Source: a virus (lineage: Duplodnaviria; Heunggongvirae; Uroviricota; Caudoviricetes). From it: DNA of 26,412 nt. A program made the position numbers and the translations under genes. The notes under the pieces were generated by a model. It saw nothing but the letters and a program-made list of their open reading frames with translations, searched no databases and was not told the origin of the DNA. Positions 132-8,836 of the stretch are shown here, one piece after another (the first letter of the stretch is position 1; each line of letters opens with the position of its first letter). The stretch is from positions 1-26,412 of the IMG/VR virus record IMGVR_UViG_2529292890_000002, one strand, 5' to 3'.

Positions 132-1112
132 TCACACCGCCAGCCCGCCGCCAAGAGGGTTTAACGTTACTGCGTGTTGCAGATAATCGGGGGCCAGGTG
201 AGCATAAACCATCGTCTGTTGTATGCTGGCGTGCCCAAGAATTTGCTGTAACGCAATAATGTTTCCCCCGTTCATCATGAACCAGCTTGCGAACGTATGC
301 CGAAGCACATGCGTGGCCTGCCCGCGTGGTAAATCGGGCTTAACCTGTCTGAGCCGTTCGCAGAAGTTTTCATAATCAACTTTGAACAGTGGCCCGGTGT
401 CGCTGGTCTTGATCTCTTTCTCCAGTTCTTCCGATATCGGAACCGTGCGTTTTTTCCCGTTTTTGGTCTTAAGGAACGTTACGCGCCCGTGATTTACCTG
501 CTCGCCTCGCAGCGTGCTTCCTTCGCCCCAGCGTGCGCCGGTGCTGAGGCATAGCAGTGCCACGCGTCGATCGTCGCCGGTCAGAGTATCCAGCAATTTG
601 CTGATCTCAGATTTAGCGAGATAAGTCATAGCTGGCGGCGCTTCTTTCAGTGGTTCCAGACCCTTACAGGGGTTTTCCTTCCTGAACTCTTCCAGCTTTA
701 TCAACGTGCTGAACATCCCGGATAAGCGGTAAATATCACGGTTGATCGTTGCTGCGCTGATACCGTCCTCCAGCCGTTGGCTTCGGTGCTGTGCAATCAT
801 TCGCTTGTTCAGTCGGTTAACGGCTGGATCACCCAGCGCCCTGATTGTTTTATTCAGGTGCCGCTTTTCAATCTCGCCATTTTCCTGAGTCTGTCCATAC
901 AGCAGCCACCAGGTATCTAACAACTCGCTTAAGGTGCGGCGGTCAACGCTCGCGCCCAGCCATTCCTTTTTGTCGGCGTTGGCTAATACATAACGCTCAA
1001 AAAGAACTGCCTCTTGTTTCTTCTCAAATCGCCTGCGGATACGTTTTCCGTTACGTCCGCGCGGCCATACGTCTACTTCATATTGACCACCTTCGAGCTT
1101 CTTAATCGACAT
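132..1112 (-). CDS. int: Tyrosine-type site-specific integrase (P2 Int-like)
   Basis: 326 aa ORF with ATG start and upstream GGAGGG SD; C-terminal catalytic region HVLRHTFAS...GHASIQQTMVYAHL (H-x-x-R, His, Tyr) and upstream TGARWGE arginine box; sits at the prophage end next to the repressor. Confidence 0.9.
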   Translation of the reverse strand: MSIKKLEGGQYEVDVWPRGRNGKRIRRRFEKKQEAVLFERYVLANADKKEWLGASVDRRTLSELLDTWWLLYGQTQENGEIEKRHLNKTIRALGDPAVNRLNKRMIAQHRSQRLEDGISAATINRDIYRLSGMFSTLIKLEEFRKENPCKGLEPLKEAPPAMTYLAKSEISKLLDTLTGDDRRVALLCLSTGARWGEGSTLRGEQVNHGRVTFLKTKNGKKRTVPISEELEKEIKTSDTGPLFKVDYENFCERLRQVKPDLPRGQATHVLRHTFASWFMMNGGNIIALQQILGHASIQQTMVYAHLAPDYLQHAVTLNPLGGGLAV

Positions 1113-1181: not shown

Positions 1182-1502
1182 TTAACCAGTTTGTTTCTCG
1201 GAGCGGTCTGATCCAGTTGACTCTGGCCCAATGTGTGCGAGGGCCGGTGCGATTTGACCAGCTTGAGGGGCGGTCTTATCTGTCATGAGCCAGAGCGTGT
1301 ATTTTGCGAAACGTGAATGCTGAGTGATTTTAAGCAAGATATCGCTACCAATACTCTCCACTCTTCCTGTCTCGTAATACTTCTGCGTGCCAGCAGGTAT
1401 TCCTGTTAATTCAAAGAATTGCTGCCTTGTTAACCCCTCCGCATCCCTGATAGCTCTGATTTTTTCACCCACGCCGCTTGACGGGGTAGGGATCTCTACC
1501 AT
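1182..1502 (-). CDS. C: Immunity repressor (P2 C-like, HTH)
   Basis: Start chosen at ATG 1502 (strong AAGGAG SD 6 nt upstream) rather than the track's 1541; N-terminal HTH-like segment LTRQQFFELTGIPAGTQKYYETG; C-terminus GQIAPALAHIG...SEKQTG resembles the P2 C C-terminus as recalled. Confidence 0.8.
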   Translation of the reverse strand: MVEIPTPSSGVGEKIRAIRDAEGLTRQQFFELTGIPAGTQKYYETGRVESIGSDILLKITQHSRFAKYTLWLMTDKTAPQAGQIAPALAHIGPESTGSDRSEKQTG

Positions 1503-1577
1503 AACATTCTCCTTAAGGGTGGTAATCTCTACCATTAGCAACCGCCAATATAAGCAGTTACAAGCCGAAATAAGCGC
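1492..1577. promoter_or_regulatory. Divergent early control region between C and cox with direct repeats (candidate operators / Cox boxes)
   Basis: 11-bp direct repeat ATCTCTACCAT at 1492-1502 and 1525-1535 (one copy contains the C start codon); ATAAGCA/ATAAGCG repeats at 1550 and 1571, 21 bp apart. Confidence 0.4.
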
Positions 1578-1602: not shown

Positions 1603-1884
1603 ATGACAGAGAAAGATTTAGAGGGGTTCATTGAAGTGCGTCACGCTGTTGACGCGGTTCCATACCCAAAATTTGCCGAATTGATCGGTAAGAAGCCCGC
1701 CACGGTTAAGAGCATGATTGAAGACGGTAAGTTGCCGATCATCCCGTGGAAGAACCCGGAAAGCCTGGGCGCCCGTGCTGAGAACTGGATCTATATTCCT
1801 GAGTTCAACCGCGCAATGCGTGACGCTTACTACAACCGTCCGAGAGAGCAGCGCGATGCTTGGTTGCTGTGGATCGGTCTTTGA
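1603..1884 (+). CDS. cox: Cox-like excisionase / early-promoter repressor
   Basis: 93 aa ORF divergent from C; PYPKFAELIGKKPATVKSMIEDGKLPII and C-terminal RDAWLLWIGL resemble P2 Cox as recalled. Confidence 0.7.
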   Translation: MTEKDLEGFIEVRHAVDAVPYPKFAELIGKKPATVKSMIEDGKLPIIPWKNPESLGARAENWIYIPEFNRAMRDAYYNRPREQRDAWLLWIGL

Positions 1885-2098: not shown

Positions 2099-2315
2099 GG
2101 GGGCTTTTGTGGCTGTGCAATTAATACAATTAAGTCGTCATTCATATTTATATCGTGGCTTCACTATTCAGAAATGCCCGCGTAATCCTTTTACGTTTAA
2201 GCACTCTTATCGTATTTCCAGCAATGGCGATTATTACGGGCGTGATTTTGCTTTAGCGGAAGCCATGCGCACGGTTGATCAGATGTATAAACAAGGGGGC
2301 AGTAATGCACGATGA
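2064..2315 (+). CDS. Hypothetical protein (weak ORF in AT-rich stretch)
   Basis: 83 aa track ORF overlapping both neighbours; no SD or motif identified. Confidence 0.2.
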   Translation: MLMVNCLNWECEGAFVAVQLIQLSRHSYLYRGFTIQKCPRNPFTFKHSYRISSNGDYYGRDFALAEAMRTVDQMYKQGGSNAR

Positions 2316-2535
2316 AGGCCCATCACTGGCGAGCCTGCTTAAGCACGGGTGCCAGGTTACACACTTCAAAAACTCACGCGGCTGGCTGGAAACACCAGAC
2401 GGGCAATTCTTTAAACCTGAGCCTAGCAAGGTTCAATTTATTAAGGGAATGAGTAAGCCCTTTGTTTATACGAAGAAGATAAACAAAGGATTGCTTTTTA
2501 ACCTTGTTAATTCTTTGAGAAATTTAATCGGCTAA
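2305..2535 (+). CDS. Hypothetical small protein
   Basis: ATG 2305 preceded by AAGGGGG SD; 76 aa; AT-rich by eye. Confidence 0.35.
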   Translation: MHDEGPSLASLLKHGCQVTHFKNSRGWLETPDGQFFKPEPSKVQFIKGMSKPFVYTKKINKGLLFNLVNSLRNLIG

Positions 2536-2629
2536 CAACGCCAGTTAAATAGTAATTAAAAAACTGTCTTCACTGTCGTCACTTAATTAAGTGATGGCGC
2601 TTTCACTCATCCTAAAAAGGATAAATAGC

Positions 2630-3064
2630 ATGTTTAATAAACTGTTTGGAAAAAAAGTAGCAGCGGCAAAAGTTGAACTTAAGAAAGTGGAAAATCGCGA
2701 TCTGATGGAAGCTATTGTCGGCGGTTGCCTTTTGGTATCTGCCGCCGATGGCGAGATCGAAAAAGAAGAAACCAGCAAGCTGGATCAGCTTATCCGCTCT
2801 AACCCGCGCCTTGCGCATTTCGGCAATGAAATCACATCCACCATCAACCGCTATACGGAACAGCTTGAAGCTGGCTTCCGCGTTGGCCGCATGAACATTT
2901 TGCGCGAAATCGACGACATCAAAAACGATCCGAAAGAAGCCGAAGAAGTCTTCGTCAACATGCTGACTATCGCCGAAGCGGACGGCCAGATCGAACCGGA
3001 AGAACAGAAGGTGCTGGAAGAGGTAGGGCGCCGTCTGGGGCTGCGTGTTGAGGATTATCTCTGA
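2630..3064 (+). CDS. TerB-like (tellurite-resistance TerB family) domain protein
   Basis: Start at ATG 2630 (MFNKLFGKK, AGGA SD upstream); two ADG-I-E-EE segments (AADGEIEKEE and AEADGQIEPEE) typical of TerB-family helical proteins as recalled. Confidence 0.55.
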   Translation: MFNKLFGKKVAAAKVELKKVENRDLMEAIVGGCLLVSAADGEIEKEETSKLDQLIRSNPRLAHFGNEITSTINRYTEQLEAGFRVGRMNILREIDDIKNDPKEAEEVFVNMLTIAEADGQIEPEEQKVLEEVGRRLGLRVEDYL

Positions 3065-3246
3065 TGCTGCGCGTGCTGGATTCACTACGTCCGGCGCTGG
3101 CCCTGCTGTTGGCCTTCATGGTCGTAGCAGTGGATTTCACCAGCTACCTGCTTTCGGTGATTGGCGACGCCTTCTTCGTTGGCGCTCTTCTTCTCCTTGT
3201 CTGGCCTGCCCTCAAGTCAGCTAACCAATCAGCGGATCACCAGTAA
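3064..3246 (+). CDS. Small hydrophobic membrane protein, translationally coupled to the TerB-like gene
   Basis: ATG overlaps the upstream stop (TGATG); 60 aa with two hydrophobic stretches (ALALLLAFMVVAV, FFVGALLLLVWPAL). Confidence 0.4.
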   Translation: MLRVLDSLRPALALLLAFMVVAVDFTSYLLSVIGDAFFVGALLLLVWPALKSANQSADHQ

Positions 3247-3288
3247 CAGATTGCCGGGGAAACCCGGCAATTTCTGAGGCTTCGAATC

Positions 3289-3501
3289 ATGACTAAACGC
3301 GATCAATATAACTTCATCCTGCACGTTCTCTTACCTGCTGTTGAGCGTGAAGGGCTGACGATTAAAACCCGACGCGATGGCGAGTTAACCCTTTCTTCTG
3401 ACGATCCCTCTGTTTCTTGCTTTATCGACGACATGCGCCAGCGCCTTACCACGGCGTTGCAGCGTCCGGCTGTTCCATCTTCCCCTTACGGAGTCCTGTA
3501 A
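3289..3501 (+). CDS. Hypothetical small protein
   Basis: 70 aa ORF with GAGG upstream; its stop lies 1 nt before the Dam start. Confidence 0.4.
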   Translation: MTKRDQYNFILHVLLPAVEREGLTIKTRRDGELTLSSDDPSVSCFIDDMRQRLTTALQRPAVPSSPYGVL

Positions 3502-3502
3502 A

Positions 3503-4474
3503 ATGATCCGCCCGTTCATCAAATGGGCAGGGGGTAAAACCCGTGTCCTCCCTGACCTGCTGCCGCATCTTCCTAAAGCTGACTGCCTGATCGAACCGTT
3601 CGTAGGCGGCGCATCGGTATTTCTGGCGACTGAATACCGCCGCTATGTGCTGGCTGATATCAACCAGGATCTTATTAACCTGTATCGGGAAGTCACCCGT
3701 TACCCGGACTTAGTGATCGATGCTGCCCGCGAATTGTTCAACAGTAAGAATAGCCCGCAGGGATACAACGAAGTCCGTGCCGCGTTCAATAAGCAGGTGG
3801 GTACGGTAAAAAGCGGTGGGTTGCGTTATGGCGCTGAAATGGCGTGCATTATGCGCGCTGCTCAATTCCTGTATCTGAATCGCCACGGTTATAACGGCTT
3901 ATGTCGATACAGCCGGAAGACCGGCTTTAACGTGCCGTTTGGCAAGTATAAGAGCGTCTACTTTCCTGAAAATGAAATCCGCCTGTTTTCCGAAAAGGCC
4001 AACGATACAAAAGCAATATTTCTTTGTGCGCCGTTCCAGCGTTCTCTACAGGTCGTCACGGGTGGCGATGTTCTCGTTTACTGCGATCCGCCTTACCTGC
4101 CTGAAAGCAAAACAGCCGATTTTACCCAATACCACACCGAACCATTCACGGAAGGCAACCACCGCCAGTTAGTCCAGGCACTGCTGGAAGTTAACCGTAA
4201 GCATGGCGTGAAGGTCGTCATTTCCAACAGCGATACCGAAGCCACCCGCGCGATTTATCAGCCCTTCAAGATGCACGAAATCAGCGTGCAACGTTCCATC
4301 AGCACCGACAAAGACAACCGCCAGAAGGCCAAAGAAGTGATCGGCGTGCTGCCTGTCTGCGACTGCTGCGGGCGTTACGGCGGCGGTTGCCCTGATTGTG
4401 GCGCCGTGATGGGTGATGCGACTTACAACGCGATGGTTGCGGCGGGCGCGTTTGACGATCTGGAGGCTTTTTAA
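3503..4474 (+). CDS. dam: DNA adenine methyltransferase (Dam-like, N6-adenine class) with Cys-rich C-terminal extension
   Basis: N-terminal FIKWAGGK, then EPFVGGASVF (AdoMet-binding) and catalytic DPPY; C-terminal CDCCGRYGGGCPDCG extension. Confidence 0.85.
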   Translation: MIRPFIKWAGGKTRVLPDLLPHLPKADCLIEPFVGGASVFLATEYRRYVLADINQDLINLYREVTRYPDLVIDAARELFNSKNSPQGYNEVRAAFNKQVGTVKSGGLRYGAEMACIMRAAQFLYLNRHGYNGLCRYSRKTGFNVPFGKYKSVYFPENEIRLFSEKANDTKAIFLCAPFQRSLQVVTGGDVLVYCDPPYLPESKTADFTQYHTEPFTEGNHRQLVQALLEVNRKHGVKVVISNSDTEATRAIYQPFKMHEISVQRSISTDKDNRQKAKEVIGVLPVCDCCGRYGGGCPDCGAVMGDATYNAMVAAGAFDDLEAF

Positions 4475-4653
4475 TGAATCTTATAGACGCCTGGATCGTT
4501 GAAATCATAAGCGTGAGTCGTGGCGAGATTGTGCCGTATTGGTTGGTTGAGGCGAAAGTAACAGCTTATGGAAGGGAGTCAATAACCACAATTCTGAAGA
4601 AATCAGAAGAGGAAGCCAAAGCCGTTAAAGTAGGGGATGTAGTTCAAATATGA
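4474..4653 (+). CDS. Hypothetical 59-aa protein, coupled between dam and A
   Basis: ATG overlaps Dam stop (TAATG) and its stop overlaps the A start (ATGA); translation MNLIDAWIVEIISV...DVVQI read by hand; not in the ORF track. Confidence 0.4.
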   Translation: MNLIDAWIVEIISVSRGEIVPYWLVEAKVTAYGRESITTILKKSEEEAKAVKVGDVVQI

Positions 4654-7037
4654 CCACGGAAACCCGTGGCCGTCGCGCCCCTTCTCCACCTCCACCGTAT
4701 CCGGGTAGCACTGACAATGCTATCCCTTACGCTTATGGCGGGAACAAACCATACCAGCCGATTGGCGTTGATGTAGCGCCGGGGCTGGATGGTTTCGACT
4801 ATCTCACGCCGGATGGCACGCGTAAGCATATTGCGTTCAGTGAACTGGTAGCGGAAGACGAAAAGCCAGAACGCAGTAAGCTGCTGCGTCGCCGTCTGGC
4901 TTCACTTCCGCAGTATGTTCGCCGCCACTTTGCCGCGAAGCTTGATGCGCTGGACGCGAAAGACCGTAAAGCGGCAGATCACTGGCTGGTTAATACCTTT
5001 GAGCGCCACGTATTAACTCGTATTGATAACGTAAACAGCATTTACCAGCCTGACAGCGTGATGCCCGGTATTCTGCTGCCTATCCGCGATCAGCTTTTCC
5101 GTATTCTCTGGGCGGGAAAAAAAGAGTTAAAAAGACTGGCTTATACGCTTGCCGATATCTTTACGAGCGAGTTTATACGCGAGTCCGATCACCAGTTGGC
5201 GCACACCGGCGATCCAGAGTTTGCGGCACTTTCTGGCTATGGTCGTATTGCGTCGCTGGCGGTGCATCTGAAAACGCCGATTCCCGGCTGGACAGCGTAT
5301 TGCAATGAAGAACTTGAAGCGGAGGACGCGTTACGCGCGGTTCTTCGTCTTGAGTCACCGCAGTGGTGGTTAAACCGCCTGCGTCGTATCCATGCCCGCT
5401 GGCGCGAGCATTTGATGATCGCTACGGGATACGTACAGGTGAAAGCCTCTCCGTACAGTAGCGCACCGTGTCTTACGGAATGGCTGGCCCAGAAAAAGGC
5501 TAACCGTGAATACCTCAAGGCTATGGAACTGGAGGATCAGGACACGGGCGAACGCATTTCACTGATCGATAAAGTCGCCGGCAGTGTTGCCAATCCGGCC
5601 AATCGTCGCCGCGAACTCATGACGAGAATGCGCGGATTTGAAGAACTGGCGAAGCTGGAAGGGCTGGCCGGTGACTTCTACACGCTGACAGCGCCTTCCC
5701 GTTATCACTCTATGCAGCACAATGGTCTTCGCAATAATAAATACCGTGGTGCGTCGCCGCGCGAGACGCAGCAGTATCTTTGCAAAGTCTGGGCGAGAAC
5801 CCGCGCCGCGTGGAAGAGAAAAGGTATCCGGGTCTTTGGCTTTCGTGTGGTGGAACCGCACCACGATGCAACGCCGCACTGGCATTTGCTTCTTTTTATG
5901 CGCCCGGAATGCGTTGAGCAGGCGCGTGAAATCTTCCGTAAACATGCCCTGAAAGAAGACGGCAACGAACCGGGAGCGCAGGAAAACCGCTTTCAGGTTG
6001 TGCCGATCGATGAAGCCCACGGCAGCGCTACCGGCTATATAGCGAAATACATTTCGAAGAATATTGACGGCTTCGCGTTGGATGGCGAGAAGGACGATGA
6101 AACCGGGGAAGATCTGAAAGAAATGTCTCTCCGCGTTAGCGCGTGGGCGTCGCGCTGGTCTATTCGCCAGTTTCAGCAGATCGGCGGTGCGCCGGTCACG
6201 GTATATCGCGAGCTTCGCCGCTTGGGCGATCGCGAACTGGTGTTACACCCTGAACTGGAAACCGCCCGGCAGGCCGCTAACGGTGGCGAATGGGATAACT
6301 ACGTATTAGCCCAGGGTGGCCCGTTGGTTGAGCGCGATAAGCTGCGCATCCGTCTGAATTATGAAACCACTGAAAACGGCAACGCCTACGGCGATAACGT
6401 CCAGCGAATCACCGGTATCTATTGCCCGCTTACGGGTAATAACTCTTTGATCTTCACCCGCACCACTCAATACAAAATCGTGCCGAAGCGTCAGAGCGCT
6501 GACGGTGTGGCCGTTGACGTTGGTTTTTCAGGCGGCAGCGCCGCCCCTCGGAGTTCTGTCAATAACTGTACGCGGGATCCCGCGGCAGGTGCTGACGGTG
6601 TTGAACATGCCGCCAGCGAAGCTAAAGAACAGTCAGGAATGACTGTGCCAGCTGAGGGCGTGACGGTGAATTTTGATGCGCTTTCACGGCAGGAAAAGCG
6701 AGAACTGGCGCAGCGGCTTAGTGACGATGTGCGAAGTAAGCGTAAAAAACGGCCACTGGAACGGGAAGAGGGGGCCGGGCTATCCGTGAAAGAGCAGCAG
6801 ATCAGTGAACTGCTGGCGCTGCGTGGGATTGATGCCAGCGCCGGAATGGTCAGATCGATGATTGCGGGTGCGTCAGTGGCGTGCGGCGATCTTGTTATGA
6901 CCGTGCAGGACGGGCGGCTGGTATCGCGCAACCGCGCAGCGTCCGGGCTGGATAAGCTACCGTCGCAGGTGATGGCGGCGAAGCAAAAAACAAGTGATCT
7001 TGTGAACAGGATGAAAGCAGCATTTTCGCGGAACTAA
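4650..7037 (+). CDS. A: Replication initiation protein A (rolling-circle nicking initiator, P2 gpA-like)
   Basis: 795 aa; HUH-type motif HWHLLLF and paired catalytic tyrosines YIAKYISK (Y-x-x-K-Y); sits between the early genes and the cargo/cos region as in P2. Confidence 0.9.
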   Translation: MTTETRGRRAPSPPPPYPGSTDNAIPYAYGGNKPYQPIGVDVAPGLDGFDYLTPDGTRKHIAFSELVAEDEKPERSKLLRRRLASLPQYVRRHFAAKLDALDAKDRKAADHWLVNTFERHVLTRIDNVNSIYQPDSVMPGILLPIRDQLFRILWAGKKELKRLAYTLADIFTSEFIRESDHQLAHTGDPEFAALSGYGRIASLAVHLKTPIPGWTAYCNEELEAEDALRAVLRLESPQWWLNRLRRIHARWREHLMIATGYVQVKASPYSSAPCLTEWLAQKKANREYLKAMELEDQDTGERISLIDKVAGSVANPANRRRELMTRMRGFEELAKLEGLAGDFYTLTAPSRYHSMQHNGLRNNKYRGASPRETQQYLCKVWARTRAAWKRKGIRVFGFRVVEPHHDATPHWHLLLFMRPECVEQAREIFRKHALKEDGNEPGAQENRFQVVPIDEAHGSATGYIAKYISKNIDGFALDGEKDDETGEDLKEMSLRVSAWASRWSIRQFQQIGGAPVTVYRELRRLGDRELVLHPELETARQAANGGEWDNYVLAQGGPLVERDKLRIRLNYETTENGNAYGDNVQRITGIYCPLTGNNSLIFTRTTQYKIVPKRQSADGVAVDVGFSGGSAAPRSSVNNCTRDPAAGADGVEHAASEAKEQSGMTVPAEGVTVNFDALSRQEKRELAQRLSDDVRSKRKKRPLEREEGAGLSVKEQQISELLALRGIDASAGMVRSMIAGASVACGDLVMTVQDGRLVSRNRAASGLDKLPSQVMAAKQKTSDLVNRMKAAFSRN

Positions 7038-7195: not shown

Positions 7196-8194
7196 ATGAC
7201 GAACCATAATCAGATGAGTCAGATATATTCTAAATTCGGCCGGGCCGGGTTTAATCTCTCTTACATCCGCAGGTTGTTGCCTGACTGGTGGGATGAGAAG
7301 CTTGCTGACACCCCATCAGGGCGCCAGTATGCGTGCCTGCACCTTGCGCGTATGTTTAGCATTCTCCCGGATAGCCTGAAAGATGGTAGCGAAGGGGTAT
7401 GCTTTAATTTTGGTGGAAACCATAAATATAAACATCGCCAAAATGTAGCCGAGAACGATTTAGATATCGCTACTGCTGTTGCCTATACTGCGGCCGGTAT
7501 TGTCGCGTCTAATTTCAAAGTCCCTTACGATGCCAGTGCAGTGCTGGATCCTTTGGCTATAAGAACCCAGATTCTTACTAAGGAATCATGGGTATCGCTA
7601 GATAGCCTGGTAACATACTGTCATTCGATTGGCATTCCTGTTGTTTATCTAAAATGCTTCCCTCAAGCTGCCAAAAAAATGGCCGGGCTGGCGCTAATGA
7701 GTCACGGGCGCCCGGTGATTGTTCTTACTCAGCCTCAGAAATATGGCTATATGCTGTTTGATCTCGCGCATGAGTTAGGCCATATCGCCAGAGGGCATCT
7801 GAACGCAGAAAACGGGCAGTGCCATATTGATGCAAAAATTGAGAATGCTTCGACGGACAACGTAGAGAAAGAAGCCAACGAATTCGCCTTCCAGGTCATT
7901 TCGGGGCAGAAGTCTTTACGTATCGTTCCTACCGCTGGCAGGTTGAATGGGCCTGGTTTGGCTCGCGCGGCTCAAAAGTTTGGAAGTGATAATCACATTG
8001 ACCCGACTCACATCGCTTTAAATTATGGTTTCGCGCAGAACTGCTGGGGCGCTGCTGTTAACGCTGTTAAAGCACTCTGTGCTGGTGAAGACTCAGATCA
8101 GGATTTTGTGAGGGCCATGATGAAAAGCGGGATGGATTTAGAAAATATCCACGAAGATGATCTTAAGGTTTTAGAAAATCTAATCGGGGAATAA
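7196..8194 (+). CDS. Cargo protein with ImmA/IrrE-type (M78-like) HEXXH metallopeptidase motif; N-terminal ~180 aa of unknown function
   Basis: Strong SD AGGAGG 5 nt before ATG; motif MLFDLAHELGHIARGHL; AT-rich by eye; own upstream promoter-like sequence. Confidence 0.6.
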   Translation: MTNHNQMSQIYSKFGRAGFNLSYIRRLLPDWWDEKLADTPSGRQYACLHLARMFSILPDSLKDGSEGVCFNFGGNHKYKHRQNVAENDLDIATAVAYTAAGIVASNFKVPYDASAVLDPLAIRTQILTKESWVSLDSLVTYCHSIGIPVVYLKCFPQAAKKMAGLALMSHGRPVIVLTQPQKYGYMLFDLAHELGHIARGHLNAENGQCHIDAKIENASTDNVEKEANEFAFQVISGQKSLRIVPTAGRLNGPGLARAAQKFGSDNHIDPTHIALNYGFAQNCWGAAVNAVKALCAGEDSDQDFVRAMMKSGMDLENIHEDDLKVLENLIGE

Positions 8195-8197
8195 TAA

Positions 8198-8836
8198 GTG
8201 ATTGTTCTTTCTGACAATGATGTCATTTTGAAGCTGGCCCAGTGCAATCTGTTATCACAACTGCCAGTGGTTTTTAACCAACCCCCCGAACAGATCTTCA
8301 TTAACCCTGCTGCTCGTTTTCAGCTTCTGCCGAAAAATCCTGATAAAGCAATCAGGAAGTGTGGTAGCCAGGTTGTTTACGAGCAGGTGGGAGCCTTCAT
8401 TGAATCTGTACAGGATATCCCGGAAGTTCAGGACTCACAGCTTATTGAGCTTTTGGGGAGTGTGCCCGGAATTGATGTAGGCGAACAGCTATTGCTTGCC
8501 TCGTGCATAGAGAACCCAGAAGCCATTTTCATGACTGGTGATCGCCGCTGTTTGACTGCAATTGTTGCAAACCAACCGGCCCTTTCCGTGATTCATCAGC
8601 GTTTACTGGATGCAGTTGTTACCTTTGAGTCGTCACTTTTGTTATGTGTCCACGGTACAGATCAGGCTCAAGTTTATGAAAATTTGGTGAGCAATCCTAA
8701 ACCTGACGGCATGTTGAAATTGGCTCTTTCAAACGCTGGCGCTGCAATGTGCGAATGTATCTTTTCCCATACTCGTGAGTTTTACGATTACCTTGCCTTC
8801 AAAGATCGACTTCCTGATCGGGAGTGGGGAAGGTAA
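8198..8836 (+). CDS. Cargo partner protein of unknown function (possible PIN-like fold, speculative)
   Basis: GTG start 3 nt after the upstream stop with GGGGA upstream; 212 aa; N-terminal IVLSDNDVILKL plus later acidic residues (IDVGEQ, FMTGDRR) loosely resemble PIN nucleases; followed by a terminator. Confidence 0.5.
   Translation: MIVLSDNDVILKLAQCNLLSQLPVVFNQPPEQIFINPAARFQLLPKNPDKAIRKCGSQVVYEQVGAFIESVQDIPEVQDSQLIELLGSVPGIDVGEQLLLASCIENPEAIFMTGDRRCLTAIVANQPALSVIHQRLLDAVVTFESSLLLCVHGTDQAQVYENLVSNPKPDGMLKLALSNAGAAMCECIFSHTREFYDYLAFKDRLPDREWGR

Follow-up and report, generated by a model that had tools for sequence, protein, structure and literature searches.

The gene pair tciA–tciB was reportedly named in phage P1 in 2004. 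Here we describe the same pair at 2630–3246 of a 26,412-nucleotide stretch of viral DNA (IMG/VR record IMGVR_UViG_2529292890_000002; the whole stretch is hereafter called the window), which opens with the left-hand end of a P2-like (Peduoviridae) prophage. The closest described systems are the tciA-tciB-tciC genes of P1 and the terB-upf69.4-upf69.6 genes of P7 (Punavirus), where a TerB-family gene is likewise followed by a DUF3927 small membrane gene with overlapping stop and start codons. In P1 and P7 the pair and tciC are located between dmt and ban in the C1-controlled ban operon, and the function label carries the remark 'by homology' in the record; statements on P1 are drawn from its GenBank record. 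In a CRISPR interference screen, tciA, tciB and tciC of P1 scored as non-essential (PMC10695390).

TerB is also a component of the terZABCDE(F) operon, which is related to tellurite resistance, phage inhibition and colicin resistance. The TerB of this operon (2jxu) belongs to the same Pfam family as TciA, with the same fold and two acidic DG...E motifs, and in both settings TerB is encoded together with a membrane protein. The partner in the ter operon is the polytopic TerC, whereas the partner in the window is a DUF3927 hairpin of 60 amino acids. The similarity of TciA to the TerB of K. pneumoniae is low (E 1.1e-8). No homologues of TerZ, TerA, TerC, TerD or TerE were found among the scanned cox-to-A neighbours, and the locus does not qualify as a ter operon. 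TerB alone is not expected to give tellurite resistance (view quoted in PMC8421299). The literature describes TerB as membrane-associated, and the TerB domains of the defence systems Bunzi (BnzA), Shango (SngA) and Dionysus (DinB) have been proposed to serve 'membrane surveillance'. These systems resemble tciA–tciB in joining a TerB domain to membrane components. They are host-encoded multi-gene systems with helicase/ATPase or pore-forming effectors, whereas TciA is a phage protein from lytic operons, some of them in virulent phages. In lambdoid prophages, TerB is found near rusA (PMC13192938).

The locus in the window is the tciA–tciB module without tciC, a known pair in a P2-like backbone that is routinely annotated by Pfam, PHROGs and the NCBI pipeline. 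The locus itself is ordinary, and public genomes of E. coli and Salmonella already have identical copies with annotation. Its position fits a repressor-controlled early operon like that of P1 and P7, and an adenine methyltransferase gene and replication genes adjoin in both settings. P1 and P7 are phage-plasmids, whereas the backbone in the window is P2-like and chromosomally integrated. A hairpin follows tciB in the place of tciC, and tblastn with P1 TciC matched P1-like loci but neither the window nor any P2-like locus. On balance, we favour the explanation that tciA–tciB is an accessory module of the early lytic operon, in which TciB would anchor TciA at the inner membrane and the pair would condition this membrane.

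The coupled pair tciA–tciB

The two genes are as follows.
2630..3064, plus strand: tciA, encoding a soluble TerB-fold protein of 144 amino acids with two D-G-x-I-x-x-x-E acidic motifs.
3064..3246, plus strand: tciB, encoding a DUF3927 hydrophobic helical-hairpin protein of 60 amino acids (Pfam, PHROG and hydropathy).

The original prediction had proposed a TerB-like protein from two ADG-I-E-EE segments in the first open reading frame (ORF). Both segments were found, as AADGEIEKEE (residues 38–47) and EADGQIEPEE (residues 116–125), and the profile search agreed with them. TciA matched Pfam PF05099 with 54 bits (cut-off 24.4, E 2.4e-14, residues 27–143), PHROG 632 'tellurite resistance' (E 4.9e-62) and the TerB structure 2jxu of the PDB (E 1.1e-8). 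NCBIfam gave no informative match for TciA or TciB. Profile, fold and motifs all place TciA in the TerB family, and it is a cytoplasmic, all-helical protein with the TerB fold. Across 16 TciA homologues, G41, E47, D118, G119 and E125 are invariant, and D40 is nearly so.

An AAGGA Shine-Dalgarno sequence (2617–2621) is located 8 nt at the 5′ side of the tciA ATG. The mechanical ORF list also offers GTG 2591 as a start, and ATG 2630 is favoured by the homologues and by the RefSeq annotation. Comparison by tblastn with deposited phages showed that TciA is 91% identical to P7 TerB and to TciA of one P1 isolate, 89.6% identical to that of D6, and only about 32% identical to canonical P1 TciA. The DNA of tciA is 79.5% identical between the window and P7, while the protein is 91% identical, which indicates that tciA is under strong purifying selection. 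The DNA homology of the window with P7 is limited to tciA, and TciB of P1/P7 is 39–51% identical to TciB of the window over the conserved core. The database 'variants' of TciA P0026, P0055 and P0016 are frameshifted gene calls with out-of-frame tails and no natural fusions; the 171-residue TerB+DUF3927 'fusion' P0026 was therefore discarded as a Rosetta-stone clue.

TciB scored 33 bits against Pfam DUF3927 (cut-off 25) and E 4.9e-19 against PHROG 1470 'TciB-like'. Its hydrophobic segments are located at approximately residues 10–23 and 28–49 (Kyte-Doolittle 17-residue means up to 2.36). R9, V23-D-F-T-S27, D35 and W47, and with them the aspartates Asp24 and Asp35, are invariant in 17 TciB homologues. 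The tciA stop codon TGA (3062–3064) and the tciB ATG overlap by one base in TGATG (3062–3066). The coupling and the two hydrophobic segments were thus described correctly from the sequence.

The TciA profile recovered 80 IMG/VR loci, and in all 80 a TciB homologue starts at the tciA stop or a few bases from it. Over these loci TciA is 86–100% identical and TciB 39–100%, so that TciB drifts much faster. Pseudomonas prophages and two metagenomic phage-like contigs, whose TciA is 65–68% identical, keep the pairing. A tblastn search of phages with TciB was empty, probably through low-complexity masking, and TciB homologues in phages were sought with a hidden Markov model (HMM) built from TciB homologues. 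The pair also occurs in two virulent N4-like phages, Pollock and As2, as well as in the jumbo phage pSal-SNUABM-04. In the reverse direction, three look-ups of DUF3927 proteins returned six places, and a TerB gene is directly upstream in each of them.

Two phages have a TerB gene with another membrane partner and no TciB. In Pseudomonas phage AF (locus L098, 1632–1853), the TerB stop is overlapped by an unannotated ORF of 73 amino acids with a single transmembrane segment. In Vibrio phage D497 (L100, 1201–2781), TerB is followed by a 360-residue membrane protein of the Na+/Ca2+-exchanger family (PF01699, E 4e-28). Both proteins look like non-homologous replacements of TciB.

Virulent phages carry the pair in replication or nucleotide-metabolism regions (cf. 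PMC8421299). The neighbours of TerB include a helicase (Pseudomonas phage Cygsa01), a replication initiator (AF), a dUTPase (N4-like phages) and SSB (a Pseudomonas prophage). In almost every sampled locus tciA and tciB co-occur in both directions, and they are a unit. The coupling of TerB to a membrane partner, seen from both genes and in temperate as well as virulent phages, points to a membrane-anchored complex of lytic growth and not to a lysogenic-conversion gene.

Variable presence in the P2-like early operon

The early genes around the pair, and the segment that carries it, are as follows.
132–1112, minus strand: integrase.
1182–1541, minus strand: C-type helix-turn-helix repressor.
1603–1884, plus strand: cox.
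Between cox and fil, plus strand: an ORF of 67 amino acids (orf67), then a DUF4761 gene.
2305–2535, plus strand: fil, cell-division inhibitor of the 186 Fil family (Pfam Phage_186_Fil, E 1.7e-22; synteny).
2614..3275, plus strand: 662-bp segment absent from 'empty-site' relatives, with the Shine-Dalgarno sequence, tciA, tciB and a 3′ hairpin (alignments).
3248..3273, plus strand: hairpin after tciB, with the core UUGCCGGG-GAAA-CCCGGCAA (3251–3270) followed by UUUCU (-22.1 kcal/mol, z -3.5).
3289–3501, plus strand: orf70, PHROG 21140, unknown function, the downstream neighbour of tciB.
3503–4474, plus strand: Dam-type methyltransferase (MethyltransfD12, E 2e-62).
4650–7037, plus strand: replication endonuclease A, preceded by orf59.

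The early gene order is thus cox, orf67, DUF4761, fil, tciA, tciB, orf70, dam, orf59, A. In this order the pair comes after cox and before A, and a Pe-like promoter flanked by operator-like repeats lies upstream. A consensus scan placed this promoter at 1478–1507 (TTGACG, 18-nt spacer, TAACAT). The repeats are two exact 11-bp direct repeats ATCTCTACCAT at 1492–1502 and 1525–1535, 33 bp apart, and their layout is similar to the O1/O2 operator arrangement of P2. They fall within the long, TTG-started C ORF, and the true C start is therefore probably an internal ATG (reverse strand, 1502 downward). A simple consensus scan of 2400–2640 gave no sigma-70-like promoter for the spacer from fil to tciA, where hexamer matches reached at best 4/6 + 1/6 on manual inspection.

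The empty-site relatives used in the alignments were E. coli KMi029, EcPF16 and 81009 and Salmonella phage SEN5, in which fil is directly followed by orf70. The junctions of the 662-bp segment lie after CACTCATCCT on the left and before GAGG on the right. The flanks are diverged too, with Fil at 76–79% amino-acid identity, so the exchanged unit may exceed 2614–3275. Among 76 Fil-anchored P2-like loci, 11 carry tciAB and 55 have fil directly followed by orf70. The cassette was found in 16 of 5426 complete E. coli genomes, always on the chromosome, and RefSeq annotates the identical cassette there. The phage records of P2 and 186 lack the pair; the earlier statement that the cox-to-A interval of P2 is free of a TerB gene is borne out and extends to 186. 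With SEN5 and several near-identical E. coli prophages also without it, the pair is variable accessory cargo of P2-like prophages, and it is not core content with a known replication role in all relatives.

The position of the pair is constant in P2-like prophages, between fil and dam/A, even where A is only 37–41% identical. Wherever fil is recognisable in a P2-like tciAB locus it is the upstream neighbour of the pair, and in most loci it directly adjoins. The comparison with P1/P7-type phage-plasmids supports horizontal sharing of the pair with them. The GC content is 49.9% for tciA, 56.8% for tciB and 53.9% for the window, which is unremarkable and gives no evidence of a recent foreign origin by composition. 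The original prediction of an acquired moron is thus borne out for the variable presence; a promoter of its own and a deviant GC content were not found, and the pair stands inside the early lytic operon.

In most P2-like loci with the pair, tciB is followed by a hairpin that has a GAAA loop and covarying stems. In the group of locus L080, tciB is followed by a different hairpin and a canonical terminator of stem and UUUU. The terminator scan did not call the hairpin at 3248–3273, whose U-tract is too short; it makes up the 3′ end of the cassette and resembles a terminator only weakly. Rfam gave no family match for the spacer or the cassette, and the sole hit was spurious (SNORA48, E 0.84).

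The proteins from int to A are identical in another IMG/VR contig (L017, 31.2 kb), and the same early region is present in E. coli chromosomes at approximately 97.8% identity. In a Salmonella record, the cassette is 99% identical, the flanking early genes are near-identical, and the prophage is located beside cpxP. Integration next to cpxP (an LTXXQ-family gene) was seen for this prophage type in Salmonella and other Enterobacterales (L008, 1–3503; L188 and L189, 1–1600). The Salmonella 'plasmid' record CP022659.1 holds cpxA, cpxR and cpxP and looks chromosomal. The Dam-type methyltransferase has a Cys-rich C-terminal tail, VCDCCGRYGGGCPDCG. The ORF is intact in the window, whereas its 98%-identical E. 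coli copies are annotated in RefSeq as pseudogenes 'missing C-terminus'.

The palindrome between fil and tciA

Two hairpins are predicted in the spacer between fil and tciA.
2575..2598, plus strand: backbone RNA-type hairpin GUCGUCACUU-AAUU-AAGUGAUGGC with a 10-bp stem, the top of which is the palindrome (fold -18.3 kcal/mol, z -3.9).
2609..2622, plus strand: small hairpin AUCCU-AAAA-AGGAU, the 3′ arm of which is the tciA Shine-Dalgarno sequence (predicted in the fold).

The perfect 14-bp palindrome CACTTAATTAAGTG at 2580–2593, read earlier as the pair's own operator, is present in an AT-rich stretch as described. It extends to a perfect 16-mer, TCACTTAATTAAGTGA (2579–2594), and the GC content of the fil–tciA spacer is 35% compared with 54% for the window. 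As a string it was rejected as exceptional, since the window has 6 perfect 14-bp palindromes against 2.2 ± 1.4 expected from Markov-1 simulations. The palindrome is a real element because it is conserved and covarying in relatives, which is its sole demonstration.

The empty-site relatives share the spacer that holds the palindrome, with a different left half, CTCTTTATTAAGTGG, and this alignment ruled out the palindrome as part of the acquired cassette. A hairpin forms at one and the same position in all 26 unique spacer versions of P2-like prophages. They include at least 8 unrelated stem sequences, such as CCACUGU/ACAGUGG, CCAUCGC/GCGAUGG and CCGCC/GGCGG, and CATTTAATTAAATG in one lineage is a two-sided change that keeps the pair. 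Downstream of the hairpin, every version has the conserved GG(C)GGAUUMACUCAUC, after which tciA or orf70 starts. Plain MAFFT alignment put the stems out of register, so folding of each sequence and a covariance-model alignment were used instead. The covariance model matched each of 56 P2-like loci once, always on the plus strand. In its alignment, 90.9% of cells are paired and 5 of 9 pairs changed on both sides. The covariation was 0.292 against 0.201 in shuffled alignments (0 of 500 reached it) and at most 0.143 in slid registers, in an alignment that is fitted to the covariance model and thus biased towards the structure. Three stem pairs of the hairpin at 2575–2598 are G·U, which become mismatches on the opposite strand. 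The element after fil (2569–2612) was also seen, with tciAB present or not, in loci L003, L004, L006, L007 and L103–L170.

Similar elements are annotated in related phages. In the P2 record, the corresponding position is labelled a 'putative rho-independent terminator'; the stem-loop there, CGCAC-TTAATT-GTGCG with GGGCTTCTTTTTG behind it, has CACTTAATT in common with the window. The 186 record places tR1 after fil-dhr as 'one of a number of transcription terminators ... anti-terminated during early lytic' development. Like the window hairpin, both stand where the early operon passes from its left early genes to its replication genes. As in P2 and 186, ...TTCTTTTTTT comes after the hairpin of the empty-site relatives, whereas in the window the tciAB segment has split off the U-rich tail. 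The window stem is followed by GCGCUUUCACUCAUCCU with no U-tract directly at its 3′ side, and in the empty-site relatives 12 nt separate the stem from a U7 run. The palindrome is probably the version, in this lineage, of an early-operon hairpin that is the positional counterpart of 186 tR1 and the P2 terminator; the covariance model does not reach P2 or 186, and the homology rests on position and the short shared motif.

The claim of a separate operator was not upheld. An operator would have conserved half-sites overlapping a promoter, whereas the stems differ wholly between lineages with the pairing kept, and no promoter was found. The palindrome also differs from the repeats at 1492–1502 and 1525–1535. 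A relation to the immunity operator was rejected, as the Pe region has the direct repeats ATCTCTACCAT and TCACTT-N4-AAGTGA occurs exactly only once. Palindromes beside cargo genes should thus be read as operators with caution. In the consensus fold of the small hairpin at 2609–2622, 2 of 3 pairs change on both sides (UA to CG in 6 and CG to UA in 4 sequences), and diverged tciAB lineages have ACCC-A6-GGGU there. This hairpin is weak, and any role of it is putative.

Possible role of the pair in lytic growth

Most likely, induction or infection leads to transcription of the pair from Pe together with the other early genes, and the pair would be translated by coupling. TciB would insert in the inner membrane and dock TciA there, in a minimal form of the ter-operon arrangement, where TerB is paired with a membrane partner. 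The complex may bind, sense or buffer divalent cations or membrane energisation, and would so condition the energised membrane of the infected cell. It may protect against depolarising insults such as the ejection of superinfecting phages, pore-forming colicins and membrane-acting abortive-infection effectors, and would be dispensable for plaque formation in laboratory conditions. The presence of the pair in strictly virulent phages and in the C1-repressed ban operon argues for a role during lytic growth. The Na+/Ca2+-exchanger neighbour in Vibrio phages and the two invariant membrane aspartates of TciB are compatible with an ion-related role and are no proof of it.

Several points weigh against this explanation. 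As the promoter scan is a simple consensus search, the AT-rich spacer may hold a promoter that is weak or not of the sigma-70 type, and the prophage may thus express the pair. The TerB gene of Cygsa01 has no membrane ORF after it, the sole such phage among those examined. The DG...E motifs are the proposed metal site in the TerB family, and metal binding by TciA is taken over from the family by analogy. Searches of the accessible literature gave no functional experiment on TciA, TciB or any phage TerB. The lack of a U-tract after 2575–2598 makes terminator activity in the window doubtful.

The pair could instead be a lysogenic-conversion moron, expressed by the prophage under its own palindromic operator and serving superinfection exclusion or tolerance of tellurite and membrane stress. 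Its presence varies among near-identical prophages, the hairpin after the cassette is placed as a moron terminator would be, and the TerB family is historically linked in the literature to the phage-inhibition, colicin and tellurite phenotypes of ter operons. BTP5 is a reported case of spontaneous low-level early transcription of P2-like prophages (PMC7067206). However, the simple consensus scan gave no promoter-like site upstream of the pair, its GC content is not anomalous, no PADLOC defence model matched, and the palindrome belongs to the backbone, where it is found without the cassette and kept as a structure, not as half-site sequence. Virulent phages carry the pair and have no lysogen to protect, and in P1/P7 it lies in a C1-repressed operon. 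Prophage-expressed exclusion cargo is thus not supported as the default explanation, and we consider the moron explanation unlikely.

A counter-defence role also has only a small chance of being correct. Here an early pair would neutralise membrane-acting immunity, as a decoy or antagonist of Shango, Bunzi or Dionysus or as a blocker of pore-forming abortive-infection effectors. The early location of the pair, the TerB domains of three validated defence systems, and the DNA methyltransferases (anti-restriction functions) that adjoin in the window and P1 fit this role. Two metagenomic phage-like contigs fit as well: the TerB+DUF3927 pair stands between two Tad2-like genes in L093 (647–6855) and directly after an Acb2/Tad1-hairpin gene in L094 (3491–4595). 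However, this is guilt by association at two loci only, and TciA did not significantly resemble the Shango or Bunzi models of PADLOC. A search of PADLOC-DB 2.0 gave no significant match for TciA (best PDC-S48, E 0.003 over 36 residues, and PtuA, E 0.04) and none for TciB. In L090 (4001–4843) the pair is located beside a phage CsrA homologue, and the pairs of L093, L094 and L090 stand among anti-defence or host-takeover genes.

It is very unlikely that the pair acts with Fil on host physiology, by division arrest or envelope remodelling in lytic development. The constant place of tciAB downstream of fil in P2-like loci agrees with such a helper, as do the P1 record, which annotates 'inhibition of cell division', and the P1 transcriptome preprint, which puts the pair in a group with icd and kilA. 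The P1 label is, however, explicitly 'by homology' to ter-cluster phenotypes, no fil is near the pair in P1, Pseudomonas, N4-like or jumbo phages, and most relatives have fil without tciAB. We give hardly any weight to a membrane tether or a metabolite or ion sensor for the phage replication or nucleotide-metabolism machinery: replication and nucleotide genes are recurrent neighbours (A and dam in the window, ban in P1, and others), but early regions mix replication and accessory genes, which makes adjacency weak, the pair is non-essential in P1, and P2 and 186 replicate normally without it.

A wider form of the membrane explanation is tentative and rather doubtful. It holds that tciA–tciB is a widespread phage 'membrane-conditioning' module, which would manipulate divalent-cation or membrane-potential signalling early in infection to exclude competing phages or disarm membrane-acting immunity, including TerB-based systems such as Shango, Bunzi and Dionysus. 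In some phages, a different small transmembrane protein or a transporter of the Na+/Ca2+-exchanger family would take the place of TciB in this module. If this is true, the P2-like cassette would be a compact and tractable entry to the 30-year-old question of TerB function. The remaining value of the locus lies in the function of phage TerB, as TerB domains emerge in validated anti-phage systems, and in the corrected operator reading.

The region directly after A (7196–8836), which is the position of the tin/old cargo in P2, encodes a protein of 332 amino acids with an M78/IrrE-type peptidase domain (Pfam E 1.1e-7), followed by an ORF of 212 amino acids without a family match. The 332-residue protein has weak PADLOC similarity to PD-Lambda-2_B (E 9e-10), CapP and RmrA, and this locus may be the real defence-type cargo of the prophage.

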